A stretch of 59,463 nt of DNA. It comes from Bigelowiella natans CCMP2755 (Eukaryota > Protista > Cercozoa). Position 1 is the stretch's first letter. The number at the start of each line of letters is the position of its first letter. Shown here piece after piece: positions 1 to 53,559 of this stretch. The notes below the pieces were generated by a model. It searched no databases. It saw nothing but the letters and a program-made list of their open reading frames with translations, and was not told where the DNA came from. Both the position numbers and the translations under genes were made by a program. The DNA lies in assembly GCA_000320545.1 (NCBI GenBank), contig ADNK01002331.1, forward strand, positions 1 through 59,463, written 5' to 3'.

Positions 1-442
1 GAAAGAAACGTAAAGGAAACTACGGTGATTCGTGACCTGGGATGTAAAGAGACGTGACGAAAAACCACGCCTTGAGAAAAGTTGTCGAGAAGGGAATCAG
101 GTACCTTGCAAAGGAAAAAAAGAAAACGATTAAACAGAATTTTTGACAGATCAGCAAAAAGGAACAAAGTAAAAATATTTATTTACACGAAATAATGCAG
201 GGTGGCAGAAATGACTGTATTGAATTAAGCAATAATTAAGCCGGAGCATTAGAAATTAGTTAGTCTTGTTATCATCAAAAGTTGTAATAAATTTGTGATT
301 GTGATAGTAGTAGTAAAAGTATACCACCTTAAATACAGAGACGTTAGAGGCCCGTTGGAGCGGCTGAATAATTCTACCTGCTCTTCACCTGTTTCTGCAG
401 CTGCTGCTGCCGTTGTAATTGATGATTTCACTTCTTTGTCTT

Positions 443-16720: not shown

Positions 16721-16920
16721 GAATAAGTGGGGGGGAACGAGTAGGTTCTTTGGGTTTTCAACCCTCTGAATTAATAGAGTCATAGCCTTCATAACTTAAA
16801 AAATCCTTTGTTTGTTACATATCAAGGAAACTACTTCGTCACGACAAAAAGGATTATCTCTTCAATCTACATTTTAATTGGTTGTTCCTTCTCCAGTTTT
16901 GAGAGGGAAGAGACCAAGAG

Positions 16921-17525
16921 ATGGGAAATCAGCTATCGGAGGAGAATAAGTCGAAAGCGACCACTCTTTTCCGATGCCTTGACCGTGGAAATAAGGGCTA
17001 TCTAGTTCTTGCGGATATGCAAGTAATGCGCTCTGTATCACACCGATTTGCTGAAAAGACGGATATCCAATTGATGAAGGCGGACAAGAACAAGGACAAC
17101 AAAGTCTCGCTCGATGAGCTGATAGCCTACTTCATAAAAAAGAACGTCGATTCTGACGAATTAAACCGTATGTGCGATCATCTCACTCGACGAATGTCTT
17201 CACGGCGAGTGCACAAGACCAAGTGCATGTTAATGATGCGCAGACTAAAACGCCGTGGCCGCGTCATGATTATGGCCATAAATGCATTCCGAGGATCGAT
17301 ATACCCATCTTCAGCCGATTCGTACGCAACATTCTTGCCTCAGATCTTTCTTCGAAGGCTAGCGAAAACAGACTTTCGATGCTTAAATAGGTCGATTTCT
17401 TTCCAAATTTTTTTGCTAGTTATTTATCTTTTTGAGATAAATTCCGATATTGAGGTGTAATACATGCTAGTACTCCGGTTATTGTTAGATTGGTGTTCTG
17501 ATTTCCAGCATGAACAGCTTCGAGT

Positions 17526-29305: not shown

Positions 29306-30437
29306 TCAAATTTTGACTGGCATAACTATTTTGCCCTCGACCGATTCTTCAGTGTGAGAGCCGTCATTTAAGCCAGACTGATCGTTGAAACCGTTATTAT
29401 CATCACGGTTAGTGGGAAGGCTCGAGCGAATGGTAATAGAACTCACGCGATTTTCAAAATTAGAAGCAGTATTTCTTGAACCTACCATGCCAGTATCACT
29501 GTTCCCAAGTAAGTACGAATGGTCAAATTGATGCGGTGTGAAAACCGCTTGCCCATTACCCGTCCCTGTTTGACGATACAAACTTTGACCCGACATCTCT
29601 ATTGTGTTTTCTTGTCCCATCTTCATTCTCGAGACAACACCGAGCCTAGATCCAGAAACTGCTCTTGAATCGCGGGATAAGGCTTCACGTTCCATGTGGG
29701 TAGAAGATAACCTCGATCTTCCAATCCGTTGTGATTCATGACGAGAATGATGACGAGAGTGACGAGAGTGCGTAGAGTCCTGGCTGGACCGGTGAGTCTT
29801 CCCACGACGACGGCGCATTGACGAGCCACCGCTACTTCCCTTAACTACATTGTTCACCTTACCCTTGATCATATAAATTATAACAGCGAGGGCACACGCG
29901 TCGCAGAAAAGAGCGAAGAGGTAGAGTGTGTAGATCTCACGGCCAAACAGCATAGCGATTGAGCAGCAGCAACTTAGGAATATGGGAATTGTCACGAATA
30001 ACACCAATCGTTGGAAACGGTGAGCTGTCGCTGCCTTATCAGCATTTGCCGAGCTTGACACCTTAGAAGCGAGGAGCATACCGTAGAGAAGGTAAGCAAC
30101 CATTAGAAGCAGAGAAAGTCCCACGATAATGCTCGAAACGACGTATGGTGGGAGGTCTAACAAGTAGAATAGTAACCCAACAACCAGGACTGAACCACCA
30201 AGGAGCGTACTGGTCAATATGAACCTCTTCTGGAATTGTTCGAATGGATTTTTTGAGAGTCGAGCATTGTGTATGACGCTAGCCCATTGGAACACGATAA
30301 GACAGTAGAGGGTAAAGCCGATGTAATATGGAAGCGTTATAATTCCCAATGAAATGCCAAAATGCATGCGAGCGTGCTCGAACCCATCGATCAGCCGTGC
30401 AACCTTAGGATTGGATGTGACATATGAGATCAAGTTG

Positions 30438-30477
<40 letters not shown>

Positions 30478-32595
30478 GTATCTTTCACTGAGGTCAGCAT
30501 GTTGTCACTATCCCCCTCCTCCCCCCCAACCCTTTGATTTTGCAACTTCTTTTAGAGAATTTGATGTTTACTAACCATTAACACGCTAAAAATCCTGACG
30601 ATAGCAAAAGCGATGATGAGAATGTGCGTCCAGACGCAGATCTTGAACTTGAATCCTCCTGCACCCATTCGCCCAACTTGCACTAAAGCTACTCCAGCTA
30701 TGACAACAAACACGCCTATCAGCACCCAATAGCCAGCCTCGACGTTGTTCTCATTCGATGTGCAGCTGACTTGATCCGCAAGAAGTGTGAATTCAGTGAG
30801 GTGGTTGCACACGCAAAGATGCGCTCCATCGGAACTAATGCCGTTGTACACGCATCCTTCTCCGCTCCACGTTTGGAGAACCGTATCCCAAAAGCGGCAA
30901 AGCTTAAGCGTGTTGCATTCTTCCTGCACAGATGTGAGAGCAATTGTGACATTCGCGATGGCGTCTTCACTGCTGTGAGTGTCTTCTGAAGACAATAGGC
31001 GCACTCCAGAAGCGTTGTAAAGATTGACTGAAGCAACATCTGGCGACGCGAACACGAAGCCGTCACCAGCCCCTCCTGCAGCTGAGGATTGCTGCTGCTG
31101 CTGTACGTTCTGCTGCGAGTTATGTCGGCAACTTGAAACGGACGCTGTCCCAAGTCGCAGGAGAGTGAGGACACTCTGTGCACGCTCATACTCGCCTGAT
31201 AATAATGTGCCAAGATGGATTCAGATGATGAGAAAACAGCATGCAACGCACAGAAGAAGCCTTTATTTTCATCATATCGCTTCAGACATTGCGTAGAGAG
31301 GGTGTGAATTTTCGTGAACGTTTATGCTCAATGAATGCAGCCCAGCGTCTTCTCTCCCCCTTCTTCACGACCCCAAAAAGGAAGTGTGAAGATTGATGTG
31401 TGTGATGCAAAAGTTACTATCTTACAAAGACAATTTTCACCTCTACAACTATAAATCACTATTTGTTACCTGGTGAAGACAATGAAGTCGTCGTTGATGC
31501 AGTGACAGTAGGGTCAACAGTGACGCGGAATGAAGAAGATGCGTTCAAGCCTCCAGCCTCATCCGCAAATATAGAGCCTGTAGTCGCGTCGAAAGCGGAA
31601 GTAGTGTATTGCACGCCTCCTGTGTTTGATTGAGGAGGGGAGGTTGACCCAGCTCTTTGAAGAAGCACATCCATGGAAGCGAGTGTTTGGTTCAGGAGGG
31701 CGCATGATGATGTCGTTGTGGTTGTCGTTGTAGCAGGAATTGTAGCTGAGGACGAATCCGCATTGATACTGAAGAAATTCGCCTTTTTCACCATCGCAGA
31801 GTAACCATCAGCGAGAACGTGACCCAAATTAGAGGCTAGTCTTTCGGGTTCGGCATGATTCGTGATTGTTTCTATAGCGTCAAGAATATTTAGAGACTCT
31901 TCAGTGTTGTCCTCATTACCTTTACAGAACAACAATGGGAAAGAGAAATATTAGCACCATAGGAAAATCGGCAGTATGTCTTCAGGATAAGCTACACTTG
32001 AGCACACCTACATGCAATCACACTCAAACCTACCCACTCCCAAAAAAGATAAAAGAGTATACCTTGGAACGTTTGAGTCTCGCTACTGTCTCTGAGAGTT
32101 TCCGCTACAAGAAGGCTCATCTCCCCTTCTACGAACTCGGTCATGGATGCCGCTCTTACAACATAACTAGAAGCGATTTGCCAAAGCTCAGAAGAGAGAG
32201 ACTGCAGAGTTGCGCTTGTGGAACATCCGCTGTTTGAAACCCACCAAATGAATCATTTTGTCCATATCTCAATGAATGACTGCAAACGGTTGTTGTGATT
32301 TAGAAAGGAATTTAATATTCTCTTTACCTAATGGTGGTGTTTGTCGGTGTCGTTGCCAATGCCCCCGCATAATCTGGACATTCTGAAAGCGAAATATCAC
32401 CACCGTCACTTCCCTTCCTGGGAATCTCGTCTATCACATCCATGGCCAGGCGAGAGAGACTGAGCATATTTGTCACGTCTCCCAGATCCCAGAGATTGGC
32501 CAATGTGCTGTTCAGGCTCCGACACATATCATCTCGCAGTCCATAGCTATGATAGTCGACATGGAATGCAGGATATGCTTCCTCGACCTTGGCAA

Positions 32596-32635
<40 letters not shown>

Positions 32636-33020
32636 AGCGAGGATATGTATGCATGCATGCGTGCGTGCGTCCGTATGTGTATGTATGTATGTATGTGTGC
32701 TATGTAGTTTGTCGCAGGGTTTGCAATTACCATTTGTCGCAACAAGAAAACAGCTTGAGACGTCTTGAGGCACTCGGTTGTCTGCTGTGCAAAAGAAGGA
32801 TACTGCTGCGCTAACACCCGAACAGGGCCAAACTGACTATACGACACACCGCCCAAGACATCTTTGGCTCCGATCAGAAGTATGTGGTCTCCAGGCGGAA
32901 GAGTGAATTTACAATCTGCGAATGTGTAGAATTCAGAGCGTAAGAGCAAAGATAGTTAAAAAATGTCGTATAAGAAATCATATGAGATATTTTGTGGATA
33001 ATTTTATATGTGGAGAGAGA

Positions 33021-33056
<36 letters not shown>

Positions 33057-34279
33057 GAGAGATGGAAACAGGTCCCAATACATTACTCCTGCTCATCGCA
33101 TATTTTCATAAACATCTTTGTATGACCTGTTACAAGAGAGAACGGGCAGAGTACTTTAGAACTAGACTCGGTAGCGGATTGAGAAAAGTATGCAAAGGAC
33201 ATAAGAATTGGAGCTGCAGCTGGATCTGAGATGACAATGGATGCTTCGGCATCGAATGTTGTCGTGTATGCTGTTCCAGACAGAGGCTGAACCCGAATCG
33301 ATGCGATAACCGGAGCATCAACTACTTTGATTGTAACCTTATTGGATATCATTAGCGATGTTATTAACACACACCCGTGAAACCAAAATACAAGTAACTT
33401 TACACAAGACTTCATGTTTTTAACCCTGCGTACATGTAAATATGTGCAAGCTTTAAAAGGTGATTGTCATTTTTGTACCGATGACTGGGGACTCTGTGAT
33501 TCTGCGTCCACATAGGAAGCGCTGATGGTAAATTTGTCCTCCTGGCGAATAGCTGCTAATTCAGATATGGAAAGTTCAAGAGATGCTGTGGTGGCCAGAG
33601 TTGCTGCTCCTGAAGACGAGGACATCACCCAACGATAGTTATTATCTATGTCATTACCGCTCACACTTCCACCGCTATCGATGCTTCTCGATATTCGATT
33701 GGCTGTGAGGGCAAGGAGACCCTGTCGGGAAACAATGAAACTTTTGCCAGAAATGAATAACGCTGGGGATTCTCCAGAGATCACACGGACAAGGAGCGAG
33801 CGGTCGCTAGAGCGTCGCAGCGTACCATCGTTGGACACTACAGAAAAGTTTACCGTGATGTTCAATATAGAAGGGAAACGGGTGGAATAACGAAGGGCGA
33901 GAGATGGGATAGAGAACACATCCCCATTTGCCGATATCTGAACTGCAGAGCATGGTTGTTGTGCCGTGTGGTTAGTGCAGCTCCATTCGAAGATTTTGGT
34001 CGCATTCTTCGCCTCCTCAGGGTCATATGAAGCTGAACCGGCGTCTAAGTACAGGTCTAGGCTGTTTGCTGGAATTTCCTGAAAGTCTCCGACACCTTTG
34101 ATCATTGCTACGGGAGGACGAGCGCTTGTCTCTAGTACGTTCTAAGTACGTTCAGGTTTTAACATTCATTAGAATCTAAACACATATTGGAAGAAGGTCA
34201 GAACATCTGTCATTTACTGACAAACTGGCCATTACGCTACCGACTACTTATGCACATGTACTTTTAGTCAACACACACA

Positions 34280-34310
<31 letters not shown>

Positions 34311-36449
34311 TCGTGTAAGTGATACCGAAAGCAACAGAAGTCCGCGTTGCACCCCATAGACCTTGGTCATATTCGCCTCGAAACTAATCTGATAGCTCTC
34401 AGCAGGCTCAAGCAAGTGTGTCGGAATTCTAAGGACAGTGGTCTTCGACGACAGCGTCTCTGACAGGTCGATGGTTCTGCCGGACCGACCTGTTCTGCTA
34501 TTTGTGAGTCTCGATATCGCCCAGAGGTAGGAGAAGGAAGAGATATCTTCCGCCGACAAGCTGTTATTCTTCGACTGAAGATGGTGATTTATATCCGCTG
34601 TGAGAATGACATCTTGGCCAGAGCTTACGATACCAAAGCCGCTAAGAGTTATAGTGGGTGCAAAGCTTCGCTGCAGTGTGGTGTTGGTCTCCGCGCAAAT
34701 CTGTAGCTCGTTCGTGGATATGGAAGAGGAGTTGAAGCGAACACACGCCGTGATCCCCACCATAACCGAGGTCTGGTCATCAGCTTGGAACAGTGAGTTC
34801 AAGCTATGAACATTGACGTGCAGGGAGTCTCCAGCCCATGGACTCTCTCGACCACGAAAGCTCAAGACAGCAGAGGAGGAAGCATTGTGGGATAGTAGAT
34901 CCCAATTAAAAATTCTATGTATGCTATTGCTGGCTATAGATGCACAGGTGAGCGAAAAAGTCATGCTGAGCCCATCGCTGGTCCAAGATGTACTTGGACC
35001 TTCAATTCTCAAGCACGATTCTTCGAGGAATCGAGTAATACTGCTGCTACCAGTGCTTGGTGACAACGTTGCACCAATGGTGGGAGCAAGAGAAGGTGAC
35101 TGGGACGTAGATATCGGGTTTATGGTCGGTGCTGCTGTAGGCTGCGTTGACGGGCTTAAAGTGATTGGAATCGCTGTAGCCGGAGAAGCTGTGGGAACCG
35201 AAGACGGCGCCATTGAGGGAGAACGTGATGGAGATAGGGAAGGAATCATAGTCGGTGACGAAGTTGGTATTGTGGATGGAGAGAACGATGGAGATGAGGA
35301 AGGAACGATAGTCGGTGATGAAGTCGGCATTGTGGATGGCGTCATTGAGGGAGTGAGCGATGGAGATGAGGAAGGAACGATAGTCGGTGATGAAGTCGGC
35401 ATTGTGGATGGCGTCATTGAGGGAGAGAGCGATGGAGATGAGGAAGGAACGATAGTCGGTGATGAAGTCGGCATTGTGGATGGCGTCATTGAGGGAGAGA
35501 GCGATGGAGATGAGGAAGGAACGATAGTAGATGGAGAAGTAGAGGGTGTGCATGATGGGTTTTGAGTGGGTGCTGTGGAGGGTAACGCTGATGGGCTGAA
35601 TGTCGGACTCTTTGTGGCCCCAGTGACAGTTGGTGCATAAGTCACAGGAGACAAGGAGGGAGACTGAGAGGGATTTACAGATGGAGTCACAGAGGGGGAC
35701 TGGGAGGGAGAGGCAGATGGTGCATAAGTCACAGGAGACAAGGAGGGAGACTGAGAGGGATTTACAGATGGAGTCACAGAGGGGGACTGGGAGGGAGAGG
35801 CAGATGGTGCATAAGTCACAGGAGACAAGGAGGGAGACTGAGAGGGATTCACAGATGGAGTCACAGAGGGGGACTGGGAGGGAATTGCAGAAGGCGATTG
35901 AGAAGGCGCGGTTGATGGTGAGGTGGTTGGAGTCAGAGTAGGATTGACTGTTGGGAAATTCGTGGGAACAGGCGTTGGGAATTTCGTAGGAACAGGCGTT
36001 GGGAATTTCGTAGGAATCGCCGTTGGAAATTTTGTGGGAAGGGGCGTTGGGAAATTCGTGGGATTGGCATAGCAAATCTCTGTTTTCCTCGAAATACTGC
36101 TTGCACTCTTATCCACCAAAACTCCTGAAGAATGAATTCCAATGTGAAATTAAACAGAAGCATTTCGCATGGAGGTAGCAAGCGAGAGAAATCTACCTGG
36201 AAAGTACTGACATTTGTAGTTGTTATTAGAACTTTGAATTGTATAGCACAGTCCTTCTCCATATGTGTTTCCTATACTCTCACAATAACTTAAGCAAACA
36301 GAATCTCCCTGCCTTGGTGTGCCTTCGTAGCACGTTACTCCTGTTACATCACATGATTGTTGGGGCCTCCTGTTGGCAGTAAAGCTATTGCATGAAACCG
36401 AACCAGTAGCCGTAGAAGGTAACAACAAAAGCAGTGGGAGGAGGCGCAT
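29306..36449 (-). CDS. Adhesion-GPCR/polycystin-like receptor: signal peptide, Cys-rich N-terminal domain, PT/PS mucin-like stalk, REJ-like domain, GAIN/GPS and 7TM (TOM1/GPR137-like)
   Basis: Signal peptide MRLLPLLLLLPSTATG (exon 36449-36197) and Pro/Ser/Thr repeats. REJ-like motifs: LDAGSASYDPE...FEWSC, IRVQPLSGTAYTTTF and FTLPPG...IGAKDVLG. GPS: CRFWD...WSGEGC...CVCNHL|TEFTLL (~30778-30899). Seven hydrophobic helices lie in exons ending 30576 and 30403-29306, followed by a Ser/Arg-rich cytoplasmic tail. Internal exon boundaries are only partly resolved. Confidence 0.85.
35250..36065 (-). repeat. Coding minisatellites of the receptor stalk: 72-bp unit (~4 copies), 87-bp unit (3 copies), 24-bp unit (~5 copies)
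   Basis: TIVPSSSPSLSPSMTPSTMPTSSP (24 aa); SASPSQSPSVTPSVNPSQSPSLSPVTYAP (29 aa; DNA anchors at 35632, 35719 and 35806); PTKFPTPV (8 aa). Confidence 0.92.
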
Positions 36450-38410: not shown

Positions 38411-41400
38411 TTATCCTCTAGCTTTTCTTAGATCCCTATTAACTCTTTCTACTTTTGTAGCCAAGTCGTTCTTCTCATTCTCCAGCTGTTCGTACTGTGC
38501 TTCGAGCTGTTCTATACTTAACTCTCCAGCTGTAGAGCTTCCAATACCCGCCTCACGCTTCTTGATTTCACCGGAGATTTGGAACATCTGCATCACAACG
38601 TTGCACATCTTTGAATCGTACTCATCCGCAAGATCCTCAAGCTGCTGCAGCTTGGATCCCACCTCCGTGGTGTTATGCTTCTGCGTCTTTTCCTCCCCAG
38701 GCTGTAGCAAGTTTGTGTGGCGAGATATATTATCGAGATGCGTTTGGATCGCCTTGGAATGCGTGTACAGCATGTACTTTTTCATGCGCTGCTGAAGCTG
38801 GTGGTGAGACATGTGGTCACCTACTTCTCCTCCCTGCAACTCCATCTTAAGAGCCACAACTTCCTCAATTTCTGAGTCCTGCGTCCTTGGCTCATCGCTT
38901 GAACGCGTGATAAAGAGATCCGCACAGCAGAATTGAAGAAGTTTATGGAACAACTGTAAGAATCTAGGGTGCCTGTCTTCCCATTGCTTGCTGAGAATAT
39001 GTGCGGTTGTGTGGACAAGAACAAGGATGAACTCTCCAACGTTCTTTAGTCTGTCTCTTCGGATAAAGAGGTTATGGTCTTCGCCCTCATCTGGATGGTC
39101 TGGCACAGGAGATGTCGAATGATGATACCAGAAAGAGTTCTTGTATGCGGTCTGGAAGGGGTTGACAGGAAGCTCCGAGGCGAGCAAAACCAGCGGTGGA
39201 GTGGGAATTGGTAAGCCCTTGTCGTCCTTCTCGTCTGTCTTCAACTCCTTCACAAAATTAAGCCCATGTTTGTATAAGACCTTGATCAGTGAGAGGCCGA
39301 AGCGGTGGAGGATGATTTCGTGGTTCGTTAGCTCCTCAAGCTCGCAGATCACGGGCTCCGTTAGCTCTGATGAGGATTGATATACTCTGTCCTTCTCGTC
39401 CACGAAGTTGGACCTCTGCCAGTCCTTAGTCGTCTTTCGGTAAGCCTTCATCAGATCCTCGATATTTTTTAGTTTCTTGAAGATCTCGAGCTCATGCGGC
39501 TTGACGGTCTGGCCAAACTCTTGCTGAAATTGTTCCATCGAGTACTCGGTCAGCACAACCGCGTCCTCCTCGGAGAATCCTACCCCACGACCTGCCCATG
39601 ACTGCGCAGCATTTCGAACCACAGAGTCTTGCTGCGATGATTTCGACAGGAATTGCATGTGGTTTGCCAGCCGCTTCTTGTTCTTTCGCTTCTTCTTGCG
39701 GTTTTCAAGCTCCTTCTCGAGCATGTCGAGCTGGCGCTCCTGCTCGACAAGGATAGCTTCGTGGAGCATCTTTTCGTCGTCGCGGTACTGCTTGAGGATC
39801 ATGTCCGACGCCTTCTTACCGTCTCCCATATTCTTCAGATACTTCTCCTTCTCTTCAGTAACAGTCTTGTGGTCCTTACCGAGCGCCATCTTGATGCGTT
39901 TCTCAGCACGCTCGCGCTCACGTTGTCGAATTCGCTCAATCTGGGCCTCCTTTTCGGCCTTGAGCTTCTTCATTTCCTCGGCATGTTTATTGGCTTGCTC
40001 AGCAGCACTGTCCATCATCTTCTGGGCTGCATCGTTCTTTAGCTCTGCATCCTCCCATTCGACGCCGTCACAAGTTTCATTGGGGAAGAACTTTTTGAAT
40101 GTCTTCTTCACTTGGTCATTCTGCTTTTGCTTCATCTCCCTGTATGATTGTTGCTGTTTCTTCATCATTTCGGCAAGTGGCACATCACCATCCTCCTGAA
40201 GCTTAGCCAGGTCGGCCTGTGCCTTTTTGACAACGTCTTTGCGTTGTTCCTTGAATCGATTCTTAAATACAGCCTCAATTACGTCCTTGGCGTGTTCCTT
40301 CTTAGTCTCCTCGTCGGTGAAGTGCGAAAGAGCATCTTCGATCTGCTGGATCTCTTCAGTGCTGATGCCGTCTTTGTTTACGGTTTGGTCGCCTGAGTTT
40401 TTCTTCTTGCGCCTTCGAGCTAGCATGCGCTTGCGGCGGGCCTTCATTCGGTCCTGTGCAGCTTTTCGCTCGTCCTGCAGTTTCTTCTCCTCCGAGGCGC
40501 GTGAGGTAGTAAAGCTGTCAAGGAGGTTGTTAATCTGGCTCTTCGCCTTTTCTGAGTCAGACACCTCCTTTTCTTTGGCCTCTCGACGTTTGGCTTCTTC
40601 TTCGAGCTCTCTGATACGCTTCTGAAGATCGTCGACGTCTGCGTTCTCGTCAACCTTTTTCTCAACGATATCATCATTACTATCAGTGAGGTTCTTCTTC
40701 TGCTTCTCATTCCATTCATCAATCTGGGCTTTGGCCTCATCCTTCTTTAACTTCATATTTTGGGCCTCCTCCTTGCTGAGGTTCAGAATTTTCTCGGCTT
40801 CTTCATTGCGCAACTTTGCTTCGGACTTCGATTCCTCATCCTGGATTTTGTTCATCTCCTCGATGAACTCCAGTTTTTGTACGTCATTTTTATCGGAGGA
40901 TTCAAACTTCCTCCTCAGCTTCTCACGACGACGGCGTAATTTGTCTCGGAGCTTTTGGCGCGCAAGGTCGCTGTCAGCCTTGAGTTTCATTGCAGCGTTG
41001 TCGCGTTCTGCACGTGATTTCTTTAGTAGATCCGCAACATCCTTGTCGACCTTTGCATCGTTCTTCTTTCGGAGTTCGTTCAGTAGGCGTTCCTGCTCCT
41101 TTGCAGCCTTGGCCTTGAGCTTCTCGACCATAGCATCGTACTCCTCCTGCATTCTTAGGCGCTCCTCAGGATCAGAGGCGCCTTCAAGGTTCTTTCTGTG
41201 CATTGCGAGCTTCTTCTGTACCTGGCGCTCAATTGCATCAGAAATTTTCTTCTCTGCCTCAGCCTCTTGTTGCATAGCCTTGGTCGCGCCGTCGACGGTA
41301 TTCTCAATCTTCTGCTCAAGCTCCTGCTCGAAACCCTCCATTTGATCTTTCACCTTTTCAGAAAGTTTCTTTTCTTGTTCGAGCTGTTCCTGAAGCAAGC

Positions 41401-41641
41401 TTACCTGTTCTTTCAGCACACCTTGCTCGATCTTCTTCACCTCTTCGTCATTGGCATCCTTGCCTTCATCCTGAAGCTTCTTTTTCTCCGCCTCAGCCCT
41501 GGCCTTGGCAGCCGCCATGCGCTTTCTCATTCTGGCCTTCATAATGTCCATCTGTTTTTTCTTGGATGACTGAAGTTCCGTGAGCCTTTTGCTGCGCTCC
41601 TTATCGGCCATGCTGATATTATATGCAGAGTAATATTATAT

Positions 41642-41678
<37 letters not shown>

Positions 41679-44600
41679 CATACACCAGCATGAATATAAA
41701 TAAATACATAACAGCAAAACTCAATATATAGTGTGTTGTGTGAGAGATATCGGTACACATTATGTATGATCGAAGCAGCAGCAGCAGTTGCTTAAATATA
41801 TGTGCGTGCTTTTTTATTAAAGTCAAAATCCTCTGTAAATGAGAAATCGAGTTTATTGTATTCACGGAAATGGGAGAACTCCTTTCAAACTCCAAACCTG
41901 ATAAGGCCGTTGATAGTGGCCTCTTCGTTCATGCGAGACTTGGCTTCATCGATCAACCTTTGCTTAAGTCGTTGCTCCTCAGCATCCTTACCTTCGAGAA
42001 GCTTCCGCATCTTCTCTTCGTATTCGGCTTTGAGTTTATCAGCATCGATGTTGTTTGAAACGTTGCCATCCCCTGTCTGGATGCTGTTGAGAACCTGCTC
42101 CTTGACGAGCTCCGAGGCAGTGTCTTTCTCTTTATCTTTTGCGTTGTTTCGCTTGGATTCCATATCAGCCTTCATCTCCGCAAGTCTCTTCTCTCGTGCA
42201 GCTTTACGTTTCCTGGCGAGTTCCTGGAGACGCTTCTTGCGCTGTTCAGCAGCCCCGTCGCCCTCTCCAACCTCCATAGCTAGTTGGACTTCGGACTCCT
42301 TTAGGATACCAATGGAGTTGTCATCTGAGACTCCAGACGAAGAAATGAGCTTTTGGAACTCCAACTCGTCTTGGTGCATTCGTTCTTGCTCGAGCCTTAA
42401 CTCTTCGGCGTGCTTGCGTTCCATTTCGAGCCTCTTCTGCCGCTGACGGTCAACCTTGTCTTGAAGTTCCTTAATTCTCTTGAGGCGCTCCGCAGCTGCC
42501 TTAGCCTCTTCGTCATCCTCGGCGTCCTCGAGCGCGTCTGTGATGTCCACCAGCCCATTTTTAGATTCATCCTCAACCTTCTTTAGCTCATCTTCTGCCT
42601 TCTTAAGCTCCTCAAGGTCTTTCTTCTCCTCCTCCGTCTTTTTCTCCTCGACAGCGCCTGCAATCTCACCAGCAACCTCGAGCTTGGCTTTCTCCTCTGC
42701 TTCCTTGCGAAGCCTCTCCTCCAGCTCCTTTTTCTTTGCTTCGTGCTCCTTCTTGAGTTCCTCGATCTTATCCTTTAGCGCTTTGATGGCGGCGTCATTC
42801 TCCTCGTCCTTCATCTTGCTCTGTAACTTGAGCTTCTCGAGATTACCACGGAGAACCTTGGCCTCGCTGTCTAGTGACGAGTCGACGATACCGGCAAATG
42901 GATCTGTCGGATCGAATGGCTCGGCTCTCAGAAGAGTTTGCGACTTCTCGTCAAAAACGAAGCCACCCTTCATTCCCAGTAGGCCGGAGAGTACCTTGGC
43001 CATGTCAGGATTAATGCCACGGAACAGATTAGTAGACTTTGCTGCAACTTCTTCCTCGCGCTTGTTGAGAAGCTCGTTGGCCACATGATCGTGCTGGTCA
43101 GAAGCATTTTGCGCCGCGTCATCGAGCGTCGACTTAAGTTTAGATAAGTCTCCTCGTAGCTTGAGGCACTTTTCGCCGATGACCTTGGCTTTCTTGATCA
43201 TACGAAGGTGCTGTTTTTGCTGCTCGCGTTTGAGCTTATCGTCGCCACCAGGTGTGTTTGCTGCGGCCTTCTTGATGGCAGCAAACTTCTCGTCAAGCTT
43301 TGCAATCCGCTTCAAGACTTCGTTGATGCTGAAATTGAAGGCGTTCAGCTTCACGACGAGAGCGTCCTGAACCTTCTTCTCCATGAAATCAAGGTCGCTT
43401 AGAGCCTTGATGATAGGGACGCCAACTACCTCAACATGTGCACCGAAGCCGCGACGTCGTGTCCTTTCCTGTTCAATCCCACGGAAGAGGTTCATAATGT
43501 GCTGCTGAAGAATGCGGCATTGGTTGCGAACCTCAGTGATGGTGTAATCCTCATTACGGATCGTGTTGATCGCATTAGGCATGTCGCTGGTGCAGATTTG
43601 CCAAAGTCGTAAGCGCATATCTTCGAGCCGCCACTGAAAAGATTTGCGTGCGGATATCTCCGCCAAGACGAGACGGCGAACTGCCTCTCCAAATCCTTCG
43701 CCCGAAGTCTTAAGCTGCACGTTCATCTTGACGGCGAGGACAGATTTGAGATGGTCCGTCTCCTCGCTCATGTGCTTGTAGAAGGAGCGCAAATCCTCTT
43801 CTTGCGACTTGAACTGTTGCGTGAAGTCCTCACGAGAAAGCTCCAGCTGCTTGTATAGAGAATGGAAGTCGAAGTCTTCGGTCGAGACCTGATTCTGCCA
43901 CTCGTACATGTGAGCTTTCTCCACGCCCTCACCATTGTCGATCTTAGATTTGACACTTCTCTTCGACGCATCTCCCTGTATAATCTTTTCCCCTGCTATG
44001 GGTGGATCTTTTTCCATGGAGGTAGATAGAATGGGTTGAGTAACATCGAGATCTTTTGTCACGGTCTTGTTGATGACCGGCTTTCCAGGTTGTACGACCC
44101 CTGCTGCTGGTACAGAAACACCTCCGGTAAGGTCAAGCTCTTTGGGGTCTCGTAGCCCTTTGGATGTATCCTTCTGCTGGACGACAGAGCCCTTAGAATG
44201 GAAGTGCCACAGGTTAAGGCTATTGCTTTTCGCCTTCGTACGGTAGCGAGCGTTGGCAGCGTTGGCGGTGCCCCATCCGGTGTTACGGAAGACGTAGGAG
44301 CCAATGATCAGACCGAGAAGGACAGCGAGAACTAATCCCGCCATGATACCAATCATTGTCCAGTCGGGCGTCAGGAGTAGGTCGTCCTCCTTGCTCACGC
44401 CGAGCGAGTTTAGATTCTCAATCGTGAATGGCAAAATGCGCGCTTCGCCTGGGCACTGCGAGGTCGAAGGTAAGACACGGTAGATCGTGCTCCGCGAGGT
44501 GGTGGCTGAGGCATCAGCGAATACGTATGTCCCTGCCTGCTTAAACGTATATGCAAAGACACTGACTGACGTAGCATTTGCCTGCAGCCTCGACTTAAGT

Positions 44601-47600
44601 TCGCGAAATGCTCCATGGTCGAAGTTCTTCGGTTCATTGAGCAGGTCGCTCTCTAAATAGACGGGATAGCTAGTGCCCGTAACGGAAAAAATCACACCTT
44701 CCCCTTCAATGAGACAATGAAGTGCCGGAGAGAAGGAAGCGGTGACGGAGCTAGACGTATCAAGAAGCTGGCGTCCACCAGCATTGAATTCTTGAACGCT
44801 GTTCCACTCATCGAAACTCGCTGTAGCATTAACAGGCAGCGTCATGGCAACATAATCGAGCGTCTGCACTCGCCGAGTGTACTCATCCATGGCGAGAGCT
44901 GAGGCTGTGATCGGACAAGCCTGTTTAATCTTGTTCAAGAACGCGTCGGTAAGGGAATATGATCCTGAAATCGTTCCACCACTCACTTCAGAACTGAGCA
45001 TGGTACACGTGGCGCCAGCGCAGTCGGAGTAATCGACGAAGCCGGAGAGTGCCGACATTTCGACCACACAAGAGGCCACACCCGAGCTGGAGTCATTATA
45101 AATGTAAATGGTGTGGTCGACGAGCACAACAACAGGTTTCGAGGCGCGGCAAGTTGCATCACAGATTGTGTCAAGATCAGGCGCATCATTGCATTGGCAG
45201 GTTCCAAGCGTGGGCGAGAAGGTACCACCAGCGCTGCCGCAGTCGCCGGCTTCTGTACAGTCGTAGGTGGGGTCCTTGCACGATCCATCGGACTTACGAG
45301 CTTGGCCAGACCGGCAACGGTCATAAACCTTTAGTTCGCAGTCCTGATCGCCATCAACGTTTGAGCCGTCATCACCTTGAGTGTCTGTGTACGTGTAGCC
45401 ACCTTCGCAAAGACACGACGAGTCAAATGCCTGGAATACACGGTTCCTTCCTATGCAATTGCAAGTCGTTGCCCCCTCTGAGGATTCGGAAGTTGACGAG
45501 CAAGAGAAGCATCCAGACTGACCCTTTTTGTTGTTATACGTGTTTTTGGGGCAGAGCTCGCACGTCGTCGCGTCGACAGCTCCAGTACTATTACTATATG
45601 TTCCTTCCGGACAAGGAAGGGCCATCGTAGTTGCCTTTGGACAGTAGTATCCCTTCGGGCATATCATGCCGCCTTGGAAGTCGTACAAAGGAGAGGGGTC
45701 TGAAGCTCCCCCAGTGCAGACGTATCCTGCGTCGCAGTCCATGCAAGTCTTCTCGCTCGAGTTGACCTGCCACTTTCCAGGCAGACAATCTGCGCATGTC
45801 GTGACGAAGGACGTCCTGTTCACGACATCGAGGGAGCGCGTACCGTTGCCGCAGGGAATCGGGAATACTGACCCCAGAGGACAATAGTTTGGACCGTCGC
45901 AGTATATCGGTTTTGTGCTGTTAGCGGGACAGTACCAGCCGGGTGGACACAGATTTGCGACCTCAGACCGCGGAGGGCAATAGGAGCCGCCAGGACAATT
46001 AGTAGGCTGTGACGAGTTCTTGGGGCAATAAGTACCTGCCCAGCAAGCCAGCGGAACATCGGTGGCGTCAGGGCAGTAGAAACCGCCAGGACATGAGCGA
46101 CATTCTGTGCGGGACCCAGCACCTGTAATGTCCTGGAAGGTTCCTGCAGTACATGGGATACTTTGGTTCACGCCCTTTGTACAGTAGGCTTTCACGGGAC
46201 ATAAGTGCGGACTTAGCGAGGAGATTCCTTCGACATTGCACAAGTAACCCTTTGGACAAGTGTCGCAGTCAGAAAGGTTTTTTCCTCCCGTGGCTGTGCG
46301 GTATGTTCTCGCGGGGCAGAGAATAGGGCGAGTCTTAAAAGGACAGTACTTCCCAGCGGGACAGGGTACAGGCAGGACGCTACCTGCATCACATTGAAAG
46401 CCAGCAGGGCAATCAGTACAGTCATCGACTCTCTCTCCATAAGTTGCGTTGCGATAAGTATCGTCCGGACAAGGAACGGCGGCTGGGATACCGCGTGGGC
46501 AGTAGTGGCCTTTGGGGCAAGGGGTTCCACGTCCGGGGACATTGGGCGTCGCCTCGTAGTTTTTGATCGTGCAAATGTAGCCGGCAGAGCAATTACCAGA
46601 AATCTGTCCATCAGTACAATACTGGCCAGCAGGACAGGCCTGGCACTGAGCGACGTTTCCGAGCCCCGCCATCGCGCCGTAAGTTCCGTTGGGGCAGAGG
46701 ATGTGGTACTCGGTACCGTTGGGACAGTAGGACCCTACAGGGCACTCAATGGTCTGGTTTGAGTTATCCGGGCAGTAGAAGCGTGCTGGGCAATACTTGC
46801 ACTCGGCAAGCCCAGGTAGATCAGAGTAGGTACCGCCCGAGCACTTAATGGCCATCGAGGAGCCGGGAGGGCATGAGTATCCTGATGGGCAGAGATTAGC
46901 TGATGAGTTCCCAGTGATGGAGCCCTGAGGACAGTAGTAGCCTGCAGTACAGTTGTTCGTGGGCGCTCCCAGACCAGGCGTTTCACAGAAACTCCCCTCA
47001 GGACAAGAGACGCACGAGATCTCGGCGAGGGCGCCCTTGTGCGGATTGTACTTGCCTGGAGAGCAGGGCACTGGGGCCTGAGTTCCATTCGGACAATAGT
47101 GGCCAGCAGGACAATCACCATACCCTGTCCATCCACCGCCAACTCCCTTGACTACAGTGCCGTTGGGGGTTGGGGAGGATGAGCCTTGGCCGCAGAAATA
47201 GCCGCCAAAGCAATCGCCGTTACCAGGCTCTGTCAAGTTGAGCTGGTTGCAGTATTTACCAGCAGGGCAGAGAGTGCAGTTGTTGACGCCGGGTCGACGA
47301 AGTTCGTTACTCCAAGTACCCTTGGGGCACGGGTCTGGGTGTACAGAGCCAGCGGCGCAGTAATAGCCAACAGGGCAGGGTTTTTCAACTACACTAGTCA
47401 TATTGGTTTCGTCGCAGTAATATCCAGCGGTGCAGGCGTCACAGACTCCTCGACCAGGGTTAGCGTTCCAAGTCCCCACCCCACAGTTTAGCTCTACCGT
47501 CGTTCCCTCTGGGCAATACTTCCCCGGGTGACATTGTCGACCCGTTGTGCCGTCTACAGGGGTTGGTGTTTCTGCACGACTGAAGCAAATGTAGCCCGGT

Positions 47601-49109
47601 GAGCACAGACCAGAGTTGTTGCTGTTGAGAGCGGAAGCTGCGGCCTCAGCACAGTACTGTCCCCTAGGACAGTCTAGGCAGTCGGACTGAGCCGTATTTC
47701 CTTTACCACTGCTAAAAAGACCTTTTCCGCAAGCGGTGGGTAGCGAAGAATTGGCGGGGCAAAAGAAGCCCTCAGGACACACATTACCAGTAACCGCATC
47801 CGTAGGAGTGGCACTCGATGAGCCCCCTAGACAATAGTAGCCTTTCTGGCAGATTCCAGTAGGCTCTGTAAGCCCATTACTGGCACAATAGCTACCTCCC
47901 GTGCAGTTCATGCAGTCCGCCTCTCTTGGGAGCTGGTATTTGTCACTGAAGGTCCCTTTTGGGCACGGGTATTGGGTACGGAACGTAGTGTTTTCAAGAC
48001 AATAATATCCTGGAGCGCAAACAGTCATGTTCTCATTTCCGGCTCCTTCAGCGTAGAAACCTGCGGTTGCAGACTTGCAAGTGCCTTTCTTCAGCTCATC
48101 CTGGTACGTACCAGCGGGGCAGGGGACTGGCCATCCTGTTCCCAAAGGGCACTTGTGTCCCCTCGGACATTCAAGCGTGGGTGTGACGGTACCGTTAAGG
48201 CAATAGTAGCCCTCAGTGCACAGGATTGACGAGTTGACTGAAGCCACGCCGGAACGATCACAATAGTAGCCGGAAGGGCACGGCTTGCAGGTTCCAAGAT
48301 CCTTCGCTCCCATTGATGGGGAATAAGATCCGGGAGGACATGGGACGGGATCCTTGGTTGCATTGGGGCAGAAGTGGCCCGTTGTACATTCCAGATGCGT
48401 TGGCGTTACAGCCCCCTGATCGCAATAGTATCCTTCGTAGCATTTACCACTAGGCGCACCGAGCCGGAAGTCTTGGCAGAATGCACCACCCAAGCATGGA
48501 ACTTGAGCAGGGCTACCGGGTGGGCAGTAGTTCCCTGGAGTACACTGGCCCCCGACGGTGGCGTTTGGGTTTTTGAAGGCCGAGCCGCCTGTGCAGTAAT
48601 AACCTGCCTCGCAAGGTCCAGTCGCATTTCCAAGACCGGGAGTCTCGCAGTACATACCAGCTGGGCAGTCTATACAATCCTCGGGGCCATCACGGCCTAA
48701 AACCGGATTGAACTTCCCAGGACCGCACGGGTTTTCATTGTAGACACGAGTACCGATGGGGCAGTAGTGACCCTTAGGGCACTCATGTGGCTGGCTGGCG
48801 CTTTGAGGACAGAAAAAGCCCGGGGGGCAAATTGAACATGCGGATGAGCCAGTGACGTTCGTGTAGTTGCCTGAATCGCATGGAATCATCTCCCAAGATC
48901 CCTCGGGACAGTAGTTTCCAGCCTGGCAGATATCACCACCCACACCGCCTGATGGCGTTGGGGTGGTCGAGTTGCCAGTGCAGTAGTATCTAAGTGAAAG
49001 CAAGAGGCTCAGAACAGTGTTCAAAAACTCTAACTCGAGCGCATATACACACATACACATAAATATTTGAACACGCCTATATGCATCGCATATTGAGTGT
49101 ATATGTTTC

Positions 49110-49160
<51 letters not shown>

Positions 49161-49541
49161 GAAAGCATATTTTGGAGGAAATAAATAAGCAATGAGCAAG
49201 TCGCACCCTGCACTGCATTTGCCAGTAGGTGCCCCGAGGCCAGAGGAACCGCAGTAGTGGCCCTTGGTACAGGATCGGCACTTCGACCCGTCCACATCCA
49301 TTGAGGAGTTAGACCACTTTCCAGGCGGGCAGTGAGTCGGCTGCGCCGAACCGGAGGGACAGAAACTCCCTGCTGGGCATATATGATTCACAGCGTTTGC
49401 TGTTTTACCGTATTTATCTTGAGATCCAGGAGGGCAGTAGTAACCCTGCTGGCATTCGCCTGTTGGCTGCTGAGCCCCGAGTGTGTCGCAATACTTGCCG
49501 CCAGTGCCTAACAAATGGCCGTGATGAGAGAGGGGATATTA

Positions 49542-49598
<57 letters not shown>

Positions 49599-52500
49599 AA
49601 ATATATATATGAAAATATCAGACTAAATCATGTGGAGTGTGCAGCAGCGGCGCTTCTTGTGATAGTTTTGGCTTACATTGGTAGCATTTTTCAATGCCAT
49701 CCATCCCAGTAATGTTCCCGAAGCTTCCCTTTGGGCAAGGAGTCTCATACATGTAGCTTGTGCCGTTGTTACAGTAGAAACCCCGTGGGCAAGCATTTGG
49801 TGTGATTGTCTCAAGCCCGCAGTAACTTCCCTTCGGGCAGGTTAGACACGCACCGAGGCCCTGAGTTGGTGCGTAGGTACCTGCCGGGCATTTGAGAGGC
49901 GCTGCGGTATCCGGAGGGCAGTAATGACCAAGGGTACATATTCCGTTTGTATCGCTCTCCACAGGCTGTGGGCTCGACGCGTTACCGCCACAGTAATACC
50001 CTGCACCGCAGTAGCCTGAGAAGGATGTAAGGCCGGTCTTGTTGCAAACTTTCCCTGGAGGGCAGGCAAGGCAGTCTCCTGCTGACCGGCCAAGGGTCAC
50101 TGGCCTGAAGGTCCCCATTGGGCATGGAATACCTTTGGTGGCCCCCTCTTCACAATAATGGCCGGCCGGACACTGTTCACCAAAGCCTTGGATAGCCTCA
50201 GGGGTGGGATCCGACGAACCAATATGGCAAATATATCCTGCTGTGCATTTTCCGGAGGGTTGCTTTAATCCGTTGGTCTCGCAGTAGTACCCAGGTGGAC
50301 AAGGCGTGCAGGCCGCGCTGGAATTCCTTGATGTTACGTTAGAATAGGTACCGGCCGGGCAGAGCTCGTTAATCTTGACTCCTAAGTAACGAACAAAAAA
50401 AGAGGGTGTGAAGAAATGACGTGTTTTGTTTACGTGGTGAAACTGTGCATGGAGTTTCAGTATTATTTAATTTGTGTACACGTTATGATTTTAGTTGTGA
50501 TTTTTATTCAGACGATTGGGCTCCTTACCCTCGGCACAATAGCTCCCGGCTGGGCACTCAAAGCCAGTGAGGGAGGACATATTCATCTCTGGGCAGTAGC
50601 TGCCCGCCTCGCACGGTAAGCATGAAGACCGATTGTTGTGAGGATTATAGTAGCCAAGAGGGCATGGTGTTGGGTCTTCCGCGCAGGTACCGCAGTAGGA
50701 ACCTGGCGGACAATGATGCTGGCGCGCATGATGCGCACCTCCCGTACAGAACCACCCCTGTTCACAACAGGTCTCGAATTTGGTCTGTCCGTAATTGCCG
50801 CAGTAGTACCCTGGCGGGCACGGCAAGCAGGCAGTGAGAGTCTTACTACCATTCTTGTTATTATAAGTACCAGGTGGACATGGAATGGCGACTTCCAGCC
50901 CAGCAGTACAGTAGTGGCCTTTGGGGCAAATACCACCGGTCACACCACTGTCTGCAGGATTTGCTTGCTTAGCACCCTTAGTGCAAAAATGCCCAGGAGA
51001 GCAAAGCCCCGAGACCTCCTTTAGTCCTAGGGTGTCGCAGAAGCGTCCACCATCACAGAGTGTGCAGTTTGCTGCGTTCGAGAGGCCGGTTGCATTGCTG
51101 TAGGTTCCTTTGGGGCAGGGAACGGGCCAGCCTGTATTGTTAGGGCAGAATGATCCTGCTGGGCACAAGACCGGGAACGTAGTGCCCTCGGGACAATACG
51201 ATTTCTCCGGACAGTCTGTGCATTGTGACTCCATCCAGCGGCCGGTAAAGTTGTTGTATGTCCCTGCTGGACACGGTTTGGCCCGGGAGCCGTCTGACCC
51301 TTTTGGGCAGTAAAATCCCGGAGAGCAGGGGCCTGTGAAGTTCGTTGACTGTTCCACGCAGTAGTAACCGTCTGGGCAGATGGTACAGTTGGACTGGTTG
51401 GAATATTTCTGGAAGGTCCCAGGAGGACAGGGGGTTGCGAAGGTAGAGCCGGCGGGGCAGTAATGCCCAGTAGGGCAGATGTCCGTAGGCGGGGCCGTAA
51501 GCCCTTTTGGGCAAAACGACCCGGCGGGGCAGACTTTCCCAAGCATCTGCGTCTCGTTCATGAAGTCCATGTCACAGTAGTATCCCGCTTTGCAAACTCG
51601 ACACGATTCATCACCGATCTTTGAGTAGAACCCTTTCACGCAGGGGACTGGCTGGTCTGTGACGTTCCAAGCACCGGAGCAGTAGTAGCCGGCAGGGCAA
51701 GACACACACGAAGGGTACATGGAAGAGTTATAGCGATGGCCAGGTCCCGTGGCTCCTGTCAGGTTGTTATAGGTTCCGGCCGGGCAGAGTTTGGGATGTG
51801 CGTACCCCTTAAGGCAGTAGTGCCCGATCGGACAGGTAATGCAAGTCGTTCCATTCGTTTGGCCAGGGTGTGGGGAATAAGTTCCCTCCGGGCATGCGAT
51901 CATTTTCGAGGTGTTACTGTTCTGCGGGCAGTGATAACCAGGAGCGCATGCTCCTGATATGTGATCCTTGCCCCCCACGCAGTAGGAGCCAGCGGGGCAG
52001 TCCATACAGTCTTCAGCCTTGGTACCGTTATTCCACGGGTAGTATTGCCCTGGCGGGCAAGGATACAGAGCGGGAGACGTGGAGCCCCATGGGCAGTAGT
52101 GACCTGTATTGCACCGCTTCTTCGGCTTCACGGACGAATTCGTCGTGCGCCAGTCGCACCACCATCCCTCAGGGCACATCTTGCACTGGTCAACGTGATA
52201 CAAGCCTGTCGTCTCACCGTAGGTTCCAGGAGGGCACGGGTTCGACCTTGGATAGATCGTGCGCTCGGGACAGAAGTTACCTTCAGGGCAGATGTAGCTC
52301 TCCTTGATCTTAGTCAGGTTCGTGAGTCCCTGCTCCGGGCAGTAATAACCAGCAGGACACTCGATACACGAAGTAATAGATTCCGTGCCTGCGTTGGGGC
52401 CATAGGTTCCTGCGGGGCACTTAATGGGCCCAGTGCTCGCCTGGGGGCAGTAATGGCCAATGGGACACGATGTGCAGTTGACGCTTGCAGTGTTCATCTC

Positions 52501-53528: not shown

Positions 53529-53559
<31 letters not shown>

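Follow-up and report, generated by a model that had tools for sequence, protein, structure and literature searches.

A single, transcribed 10-exon gene of Bigelowiella natans, at positions 29306-36449 on the minus strand of the analysed window (the whole stretch of 59,463 nucleotides), encodes a 1,901-aa protein in which a Cys-rich head, a Pro/Ser/Thr stalk, an REJ module, a full GAIN domain with an HL↓T motif, seven transmembrane (TM) helices, and a basic tail follow one another. The best explanation, which we hold with moderate confidence, is a REJ-GAIN surface receptor with a THH1/TOM1-type core that is predicted to cut itself, is likely stapled by a disulfide, and likely signals through a tethered peptide. 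More tentatively, it may represent a large undescribed class that arrived at the adhesion-GPCR design on its own, starting from a TOM1/GPR137-type core, with self-cleavage, an acidic tethered agonist docking on a TM2 arginine, and a disulfide staple, present in two thirds of members and gained or lost a dozen times, that would place shedding and non-shedding (resettable or redox-gated) receptors in one family.

The reading frame runs from an ATG at 36449 to a stop codon at 29308-29306 (minus strand, Table 1). The JGI model (Bigna1 141072, P0001) covers the 3' three quarters only, without the first ~530 aa, and differs in some splice choices; JGI also split one paralogue into two adjoining models, P0004 and P0005. 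An intron 2 donor at 34361 was dropped for 34325 owing to conflict with the paralogues and with a contig end. Seven of the nine introns were found as joints in assembled contigs from three runs (introns 2 and 5 are absent from the list of exact contig joints), and the sole raw-read run covered the gene's 3' end only. Single contigs extend from GAIN through GPS into the 7TM domain, one of them from a run recorded as RNA, and contigs cross intron 9 in six of eight runs. These bridging contigs have the letters of the near-identical paralogue P0002 and establish the joint for the gene pair rather than for this copy alone; at that level they agree with the original prediction of one gene instead of two. 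Such paralogue letters, together with the paralogue that JGI divided, would fit a gene-model artefact in which a REJ-GAIN gene adjoins a separate 7TM gene. However, GPS, TM1, and TM2 are encoded by a single exon, intron 9 is bridged in most runs, and in dozens of relatives the protein is one long ORF, so we regard an artefact as exceedingly improbable.

Table 1. Features of the receptor gene, with positions in the window.
Feature	Residues (aa)	Position	Strand	Remarks
Likely signal peptide	1-17	36399..36449	-	leucine run after Met-Arg, judged by eye
Small 8-Cys head	20-102	36072..36392	-	candidate ligand-binding tip
Mucin-like stalk	105-443	35049..36065	-	68% Pro/Ser/Thr, tandem repeats; Pfam PT above cutoff
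Probable extra beta-sandwich module(s)	~455-642	34452..35015	-	weak partial REJ-profile match, 9.3 bits
REJ module	643-1004	32830..34451	-	profile of REJ-positive relatives
GAIN	~1022-1470	30774..32778	-	helical subdomain A (extra N-terminal helices) and beta-sandwich subdomain B; AlphaFold of P0002
Cys1423	1423	30915..30917	-	N-terminal-fragment side of predicted disulfide; co-occurs with linker Cys
GPS motif	1429-1468	30780..30899	-	His1461-Leu1462↓Thr1463, tethered peptide TEFTLL
Cys1474	1474	30762..30764	-	peptide-to-TM1 linker, C-terminal-fragment side of predicted disulfide; covariation
7TM domain, THH1/TOM1 type	1483-1715	29867..30737	-	split by intron 9; THH1 profile and GPCR fold
TM2 Arg1530, conserved	1530	30596-30594	-	in 7TM domain
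Cytoplasmic tail	186 aa	29306..29866	-	Arg- and Ser/Thr-rich; predicted disorder beyond short helix
Exons 1-5		36449-36197, 36124-34326, 34141-33479, 33337-33127, 32915-32731	-	GT-AG introns, open frame
Exons 6-10		32587-32328, 32229-32063, 31919-31470, 31195-30576, 30403-29306	-	GT-AG introns, open frame

Relatives were sought with phmmer using P0002 (145 hits among 1.84e9 proteins); three word-indexed protein searches yielded only 3-4 B. natans proteins, and the family surfaced only in an unindexed search. A profile of the 7TM domain alone, with the GPS excluded, gathered 95 of the 146 collected proteins and took none of the nine that Pfam assigns to 7tm_2 (of the 51 non-family hits, Pfam was run on all but 31). 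All named members are chlorarachniophytes, and no match named as Ectocarpus was present among the 30 hits looked up. A metagenome DNA scan gave three loci, of which L003 is bacterial and was matched by chance, and L001 carries the same match.

The original prediction described a chimeric receptor with a polycystin-like REJ module, a cleavable GPS, and a TOM1/GPR137-like 7TM domain, and its coordinates, strand, and quoted motifs are all present in the sequence. The Pfam REJ model gave no direct match on this protein; a profile drawn from 20 relatives positive for Pfam REJ nevertheless scored 150 bits over positions 12-359 of 365 (≤8.1 bits in 200 shuffles), and Atlas returned REJ in 30/30 hits for paralogue P0004 (score 0.95). 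The REJ assignment, like that of THH1/TOM1 below, draws on the family. The counterpart in P0004 of the region before the REJ module shares ~50% identity, and exon 1 had no match in Pfam or the PDB.

The GPS was confirmed as intact, with its H-L↓T triad and TEFTLL peptide (Pfam GPS 30.7 bits, cutoff 22.5; HL↓TEFTLL at 30803-30780), while Pfam GAIN (PF16489) did not match this protein. The domain was instead read from a fold of the close paralogue P0002, which is 87-100% identical over GAIN and 7TM. In its AlphaFold model (pLDDT 79.6), GAIN A is followed by GAIN B, whose last element is the peptide strand, and then by seven helices; a single-sequence model reached pLDDT 41, and fold searches from it were meaningless. 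Foldseek matched the GAIN domains of BAI3, CELSR1, and BAI2 (E 4e-7 to 1e-6), and VIA aligned the P0002 GAIN with 4dlo_B (Z 18.1, rmsd 5.0, 269 aligned) and its 7TM domain with the GPCR fold (Z 20.3, rmsd 3.1, 245 aligned). Pfam GPS and the P0002 model with its fold searches thus place a GPS-type GAIN immediately before TM1. H-x↓T is kept in 88/95 members (the remainder are six N-truncated proteins and one degenerate site), and autoproteolysis at HL↓T is predicted from the sequence with good confidence.

Exactly seven hydrophobic segments follow the GPS, with basic loops alternating on the inside, and the region includes LPYYIGF.. at 30334 and AYLLYGMLL at 30097. Its link to TOM1/GPR137 is through Pfam THH1_TOM1-3 (PF06454), which ranks first among GPCR-type families on this protein's TM segments, at 16.5 bits (E 0.006) and under the cutoff of 25. 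PDB matches included no chain named TOM1 or GPR137. For exon 10 alone, EMC6 ranks first and is similarly weak (E 0.015 vs E 0.022 for THH1), and the Atlas score of 0.88 for this 7TM is a lead only. Across 94 of the 95 members (the counts omit P0034, whose 7,321 aa exceed what Pfam accepts), THH1 exceeded the cutoff in 25 (up to 67 bits, best E 2.4e-18), GPS and THH1 occurred together in 21, and REJ, GPS, and THH1 in 7, with the THH1 match colinear from TM1. At E ≤ 0.5, THH1 matched 34/63 members, and any other TM family at most two. The likeness to THH1_TOM1-3 is seen in the family, and in this protein below the cutoff. As predicted, the TM region did not score to 7tm_2 or Dicty_CAR: these, along with PLAT and PKD_channel, had no match in the 94 members at the thresholds used, 7tm_2 had none on P0001-P0003 at E ≤ 1, and hhalign of the family 7TM against 7tm_2 domains gave a probability of 5%.

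We considered whether the protein is a very divergent true adhesion GPCR, with GAIN and 7TM linked once in early eukaryotes and the 7TM since drifted from the 7tm_2 profile. The P0002 model finds full-length CD97 as its best Foldseek match, the GAIN+7TM profile aligns continuously through both domains to cover the whole of ADGRL3 (~30 bits above the GAIN-only chain), and the peptide-to-TM1 spacing (family median 22) resembles that of controls (17-27). Deep kinship of the family 7TM with an ADGRL3-type 7TM may therefore exist. Adhesion-GPCR 7TM chains were not among the 50 VIA matches listed, which says nothing on their exclusion. Against common descent of the whole unit, THH1 passed its cutoff in 25 members and 7tm_2 in none, 7TM-only adhesion GPCR chains did not outscore class A receptors (E 0.09-9), hhalign was low, no Cys reached 60% conservation within the family 7TM, and the REJ-before-GAIN order is polycystin-like; the family 7TM profile also gave negative whole-sequence scores on 7/7 7tm_2 control domains. 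A divergent adhesion GPCR is thus improbable, and the 7TM is very probably kin of THH1/TOM1/GPR137 rather than of class B2.

The REJ-GAIN-GPS unit, the core of the polycystin-1 ectodomain, would also fit a channel subunit like polycystin-1 whose membrane part is reduced and which works with a PKD2-type partner, and an Ectocarpus REJ-GPS-7TM protein has been interpreted as polycystin-like (PMC4700764). This reading is largely refuted by the seven helices in a GPCR fold and by the lack of a PLAT or PKD_channel match in 94 members, and is very unlikely; the tail, which has low pLDDT in the P0002 model and 34%–39% identity among paralogues, adds no further TM segments. The GAIN-7TM link probably goes back to a REJ-GAIN unit of polycystin-like type and arose separately from that of holozoan adhesion GPCRs.

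We assessed how residues on the two sides of the cleavage site associate across the family. In 75 members, a pre-GPS Cys and a linker Cys were both present in 50, both absent in 22, and discordant in 3 (72/75 agree), and a disulfide across the cleavage site is therefore predicted. The count omits 19 members that had no parsable GPS or too little upstream sequence, P0045 (150-aa insert) was excluded from covariation, and the upstream window of 35 residues was picked after windows of 14 (66/78 agree) and 25 (69/75). On the tree, the two residues changed 13 and 14 times individually and 15 times jointly; agreement was at most 57 in 500 simulations, and an upstream control window had no association (p 0.44). 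Cys360 of P0002 was rejected as the partner, as 15 members keep it without a linker Cys. The linker Cys is missing in 8/8 7tm_2 adhesion GPCR controls. A Cys1423-Cys1474 disulfide probably forms, judging from this covariation, and the predicted staple argues against simple force-driven shedding.

The second residue pair joins the acidic +2 residue of the tethered peptide with the TM2 Arg. Both were present in 79 of 89 members (five gapped rows omitted), with neither in 5, Arg only in 4, and acid only in 1, and the Arg column was the best of 56 TM columns for pairing with acidic +2. Three of the four Arg losses fell on acid-loss branches (rough p 0.001), a signal of three events, two of them on long branches, that is weaker than that of the Cys pair; a strict independent-pairs test (3-4 pairs on strongly supported branches) was not significant for either pair. 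Acidic +2 occurs in 73/82 parsed family sites versus 1/12 sites in 7tm_2 controls. The tethered peptide could plausibly act as an agonist, its acidic +2 residue contacting TM2 Arg1530, a proposal to which we give about even weight.

In the proposed mechanism, a stalked head would stand outside the cell on REJ and GAIN modules above the seven-helix core, the receptor would be self-cut at HL↓T, and the Cys1423-Cys1474 disulfide would likely keep the halves covalently joined across the cut. Binding or load on the head would likely free the TEFTLL peptide to reach the helix bundle and signal; the mechanosensory or adhesion role in the original prediction is putative. In stapled members, a pull on the ectodomain would reach TM1 through the disulfide without passing along the peptide strand; activation would therefore proceed without shedding and be resettable, or would depend on the bond being reduced. 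The unstapled third of the family could shed, like animal adhesion GPCRs. Output may possibly pass through heterotrimeric G proteins; the G-alpha set of B. natans is expanded, alongside 39 RGS proteins (PMC3971589).

Rather than to a G-protein receptor, the same architecture could belong to a protein of vacuolar or phagosomal membranes whose TOM1/GPR137-type core acts as a scaffold for Rag/ARL8-type small GTPases, with GAIN cleavage serving folding and trafficking. GPR137 is reported to be lysosomal and to act on mTORC1 (PMC12716839) and TOM1 to co-purify with ARL8 (PMC3234234), and a staple would impede release of the peptide. TOM1 itself did not bind the plant G-alpha GPA1 in split-ubiquitin assays, but two TOM1-similar candidates did bind plant G-alpha (PMC2530877). 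A location at the cell surface fits the mucin stalk (340 aa), the variable Cys head, and the 15 sequons for N-glycosylation, and the peptide is strongly conserved, with a +2 acid that tracks the TM2 Arg. We consider a scaffold unlikely and prefer the surface receptor.

According to a 2025 survey, GAIN-7TM linkage is restricted to holozoans (PMC12716839). Here GAIN is joined to a non-7tm_2 core in Rhizaria, and the design therefore likely arose at least twice. A single Cys pair separates stapled from unstapled members, a natural test of whether tethered agonism needs fragment dissociation, and a candidate built-in agonist with a predicted contact residue offers a handle on what activates a TOM1/GPR137-type orphan 7TM.

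Among known systems, Ectocarpus Esi0130_0068, a male-gamete-specific candidate receptor with REJ, GPS, and 7 (or 6) TM segments (PMC4700764), has the same REJ-GPS-7TM layout, also in a SAR organism; its TM family was unnamed and read as polycystin-like, and the comparison is with its published description only. The original suggestion of a possibly undescribed class is upheld for the identity of the 7TM and not for the gross layout. THH1/TOM1/TOM3 and GPR137 share the 7TM profile match, which exceeds the cutoff in 25/94 family members, whereas the B. natans protein adds a 1,480-aa ectodomain with GAIN in the same frame and transcript; described members of that group lack further domains, as is reported for GPR137 (PMC12716839). 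Holozoan adhesion GPCRs (class B2; ADGRL, ADGRB, ADGRG) are alike in the size and modular make-up of the ectodomain, a GAIN domain just ahead of TM1, the HL↓T site, a hydrophobic tethered peptide ~20 residues from TM1, and the GPCR fold. They differ in having a 7tm_2 rather than a THH1/TOM1-type 7TM and HormR rather than REJ before GAIN, and the acidic +2 and predicted cross-cleavage disulfide set the present family apart. The polycystin-1, PKDREJ, and sea-urchin REJ family shares the REJ module followed by GAIN with a GPS; however, polycystin-1 proteins have 11 TM segments with PLAT and a channel-like C-terminal part (single-TM REJ forms exist too), where the B. natans protein has seven helices in a GPCR fold and no PLAT or PKD_channel match. 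In the glycoprotein hormone receptors (TSHR, LHCGR, and FSHR), which have an LRR ectodomain, a class A 7TM, and no GAIN, the ectodomain is disulfide-linked to a pre-TM1 segment that holds an internal agonist, and activation occurs without release. Their resemblance to the predicted staple is an analogy of mechanism only.

The gene runs on the minus strand from an ATG at 36449 to a stop at 29306, and its 10 exons, joined across GT-AG introns, form a single open frame of 1,901 aa. At its TM3–7 exon the gene shows 100% identity to JGI Bigelowiella natans model 141072 (P0001); that model begins some 530 aa downstream of ours and departs from it at some splice sites. Seven of the nine introns were visible as joints in assembled contigs from three runs (introns 2 and 5 were absent from the exact joints listed), and most were seen again in four further runs, one recorded as a marine metatranscriptome; the contigs lack introns, and the RNA nature of most runs is a guess. 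Single contigs contained GAIN, GPS and helices with the letters of a near-identical paralogue, P0002, so the GAIN-GPS-7TM junction is demonstrated for the gene pair, while difference-free contigs covered the window copy's own tail and exon 2. The gene is real and expressed, and the originally predicted chimera of REJ, GAIN/GPS and 7TM as one protein is borne out by the open frame and these contigs.

Modules of the predicted receptor and other genes in the window
Feature	Position or size	Observation
Signal peptide	N-terminus	likely
Head		8 Cys; without match
Stalk	339 aa	68% Pro/Ser/Thr
Probable beta modules	between stalk and REJ
REJ module	aa 643-1004	profile built from relatives
GAIN domain	after REJ, before TM segments
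7TM		seven hydrophobic segments, inner loops basic
Cytoplasmic tail	186 aa	basic
Chlorophyll a/b-binding protein	7471-8232 (-)	unbroken ORF, E 3e-50
ORF with EF-hand pair	16903-17460 (+)	sub-cutoff in Pfam
Giant gene	38411-55400 (-)	Cys-rich Ephrin_rec_like (GCC2/3) repeats, numbering in the dozens; exons as long as 2,500 aa; apparent single TM segment and a charged, very long coiled-coil tail

All 15 N-glycosylation sequons lie N-terminal of TM1. Other isolates differ in head and stalk sequence (window 35965-36359): 24 bases are deleted, a 1-base insertion and a 1-base deletion compensate each other, and 25 consecutive bases are replaced, as would be expected of a ligand-facing tip. In direct Pfam scans the GPS was above cutoff, in agreement with the intact GPS first proposed; THH1_TOM1-3, the 7TM family of plant TOM1 and GPR137 kin, was below it (E 0.006 in P0001, 3-4e-4 in P0002 and a further paralogue, P0003), and REJ, GAIN, 7tm_2 and Dicty_CAR gave no direct match at E≤1. 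By itself, the window protein therefore backs the GPS alone.

Assignments beyond the GPS are settled, at the level of sequence, by family comparison. A phmmer search with P0002 of 1.84 billion representative proteins gave 145 matches, and an iterated profile restricted to the 7TM matched 95 of the 146 collected proteins and none of the nine called 7tm_2 by Pfam, which had entered the collection through their GPS. The window protein belongs to a sizeable family, with a median pairwise identity of 19% among 78 near-complete 7TMs. The Pfam scan took in 94 of the 95 members: THH1 was above cutoff in 25, GPS with THH1 in 21, and REJ, GPS and THH1 together in seven (P0009, P0013, P0021, P0027, P0045, P0047, P0085), with no matches to 7tm_2, Dicty_CAR, PLAT or PKD_channel (E≤0.005 or 0.001). 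At E≤0.5, 34 of 63 aligned members matched THH1, and any further TM family matched two at most; the Atlas comparison resource ranked THH1/TOM1 clusters top for the 7TM (score 0.88, a lead), and hhalign gave a probability of 5% for the family 7TM against seven 7tm_2 domains. Pfam favoured THH1 over 7tm_2 or Dicty_CAR, and the TOM1/GPR137-like rather than secretin-type identity very probably holds through the relatives, although the window protein is itself sub-cutoff. The predicted REJ likewise stands through relatives rather than a direct match: a profile built on the stretches that Pfam calls REJ in 20 of them scored 150 bits on the window model (shuffles ≤8.1), and Atlas returned REJ in 30/30 for the ectodomain of the paralogue P0004 (score 0.95).

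An AlphaFold model of P0002 (mean pLDDT 79.6, 63-sequence alignment) comprised, in order, a helical subdomain, a beta-sandwich with the TEFTLL peptide as its last strand, seven helices and a disordered tail. The Foldseek top ten were adhesion-GPCR GAIN structures (E 1e-8 to 4e-4), after which class A and class B receptors ranked alike (E about 0.004-0.01). In VIA comparisons, the GAIN aligned with BAI3 (Z 18.1, rmsd 5.0, 269 aligned) and the 7TM with a class A receptor (Z 20.3, rmsd 3.1, 245 aligned, many ties). The modelled 7TM has a GPCR fold and shows no particular affinity to class B2. On the other side, a GAIN+7TM profile aligned along the entire ADGRL3, ~30 bits above the GAIN-only chain; on 7TM-only adhesion chains it gave E 0.09-9.

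The H-L|T triad noted originally is a family feature, with His at -2 and Thr at +1 in 82/82 parsed sites and in six more by a wider pattern; of the remaining members, one has a degenerate site and six are truncated at the N-terminus. Among individual members, P0119 no longer carries the cleavage residues, and in P0045 ~150 aa separate peptide from TM1. In the window protein, Cys1423 and Cys1474 flank the cut, one on each side, from which we infer a disulfide stapling the halves together. The upstream Cys (sought in the 35 residues preceding the first Cys of the GPS) and the peptide-TM1 linker Cys occurred together in 50/75 members; 22 had neither and three had only one of the two. Window lengths of 14 and 25 residues, used ahead of 35, gave agreement in 66/78 and 69/75, and a control window farther upstream showed no association. 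On the 7TM tree the pair required 13 and 14 changes separately and 15 jointly, and the 72 agreements compare with ≤57 in 500 simulations of an independent trait; the strict pairs test, with 3-4 pairs, was underpowered. The linker Cys was absent in 8/8 adhesion-GPCR controls, and the cited section of a 2026 review gives GAIN subdomain B two conserved disulfides only (PMC13197933).

Peptide position +2 was Glu/Asp in 73/82 sites and a TM2 Arg was present in 94%, a pairing predicted from charge before testing. Both occurred in 79 of 89 rows, neither in five, Arg only in four and acid only in one; among 56 TM columns that of the Arg ranked first, and in the reverse test the pairing again came out best, of 73 columns. 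Three of four Arg losses fell on acid-loss branches (rough p 0.001), and an independent-pairs test was not significant; a contact between the two is suggestive only.

Organism was on record for six of 30 members looked up (four B. natans models, two Amorphochlora amoebiformis proteins), and the family is therefore demonstrated in chlorarachniophytes only. B. natans has at least seven genes, counting P0001-P0004, dispersed across the family tree. One member, P0034, has 7,321 aa, and a WW domain ends the cytoplasmic tail of P0054 (above cutoff) and P0099 (below). The adjoining JGI models 137893 and 137892 (P0004, P0005) are apparently parts of a single receptor gene, divided at the intron that follows TM2. 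In P0109 a short segment separates the GPS from a downstream protein kinase domain, making this protein, by its predicted domains, a GAIN on another kind of output module, and P0103 and P0104, REJ+GPS proteins whose C-terminal part lacks a match to the family 7TM, indicate further putative protist REJ-GAIN receptor types.

We propose that the stalked, glycosylated head would bind a surface (candidates are prey, substrate or mate), with REJ as a stiff spacer, and that GAIN would cleave the chain during maturation. Because the staple would hold the cut halves together and pass load directly to TM1, the peptide would reach the bundle via local GAIN opening or after reduction, not shedding; peptide signalling independent of dissociation is a recognised adhesion-GPCR mode (PMC13197933). 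Output is the weakest step of this mechanism. G-alpha and RGS sets are expanded in B. natans (PMC3971589), TOM1 failed to bind G-alpha in published assays (PMC2530877), and GPR137 has its site of action at lysosomes (PMC12716839).

GAIN-7TM linkage has been stated, of adhesion GPCRs, to be confined to holozoans, and GPR137 is described without any other domain (PMC12716839). Dictyostelium and Tetrahymena have GAIN (PMC3321182), amoebozoan family-2 receptors are described as lacking it (PMC10445921), and GPS and GAIN go unmentioned in the cited part of bioRxiv 10.64898/2026.03.02.708220. An Ectocarpus REJ+GPS+7(6)TM protein has been published (PMC4700764). Across the non-subscription literature searched, we found no paper on GPS/GAIN joined to a THH1/TOM1/GPR137 7TM. 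All modules are already known and a similar layout has been noted once before; what merits specialist attention is how large the family is, its THH1-type core and the staple predicted across the cut. Glycoprotein hormone receptors provide an analogy for the proposed mechanism. The family resembles adhesion GPCRs in working design, but its 7TM sets it apart from them, and the membrane part of the window protein likewise places it outside the polycystins, which are defined by 11 TM.
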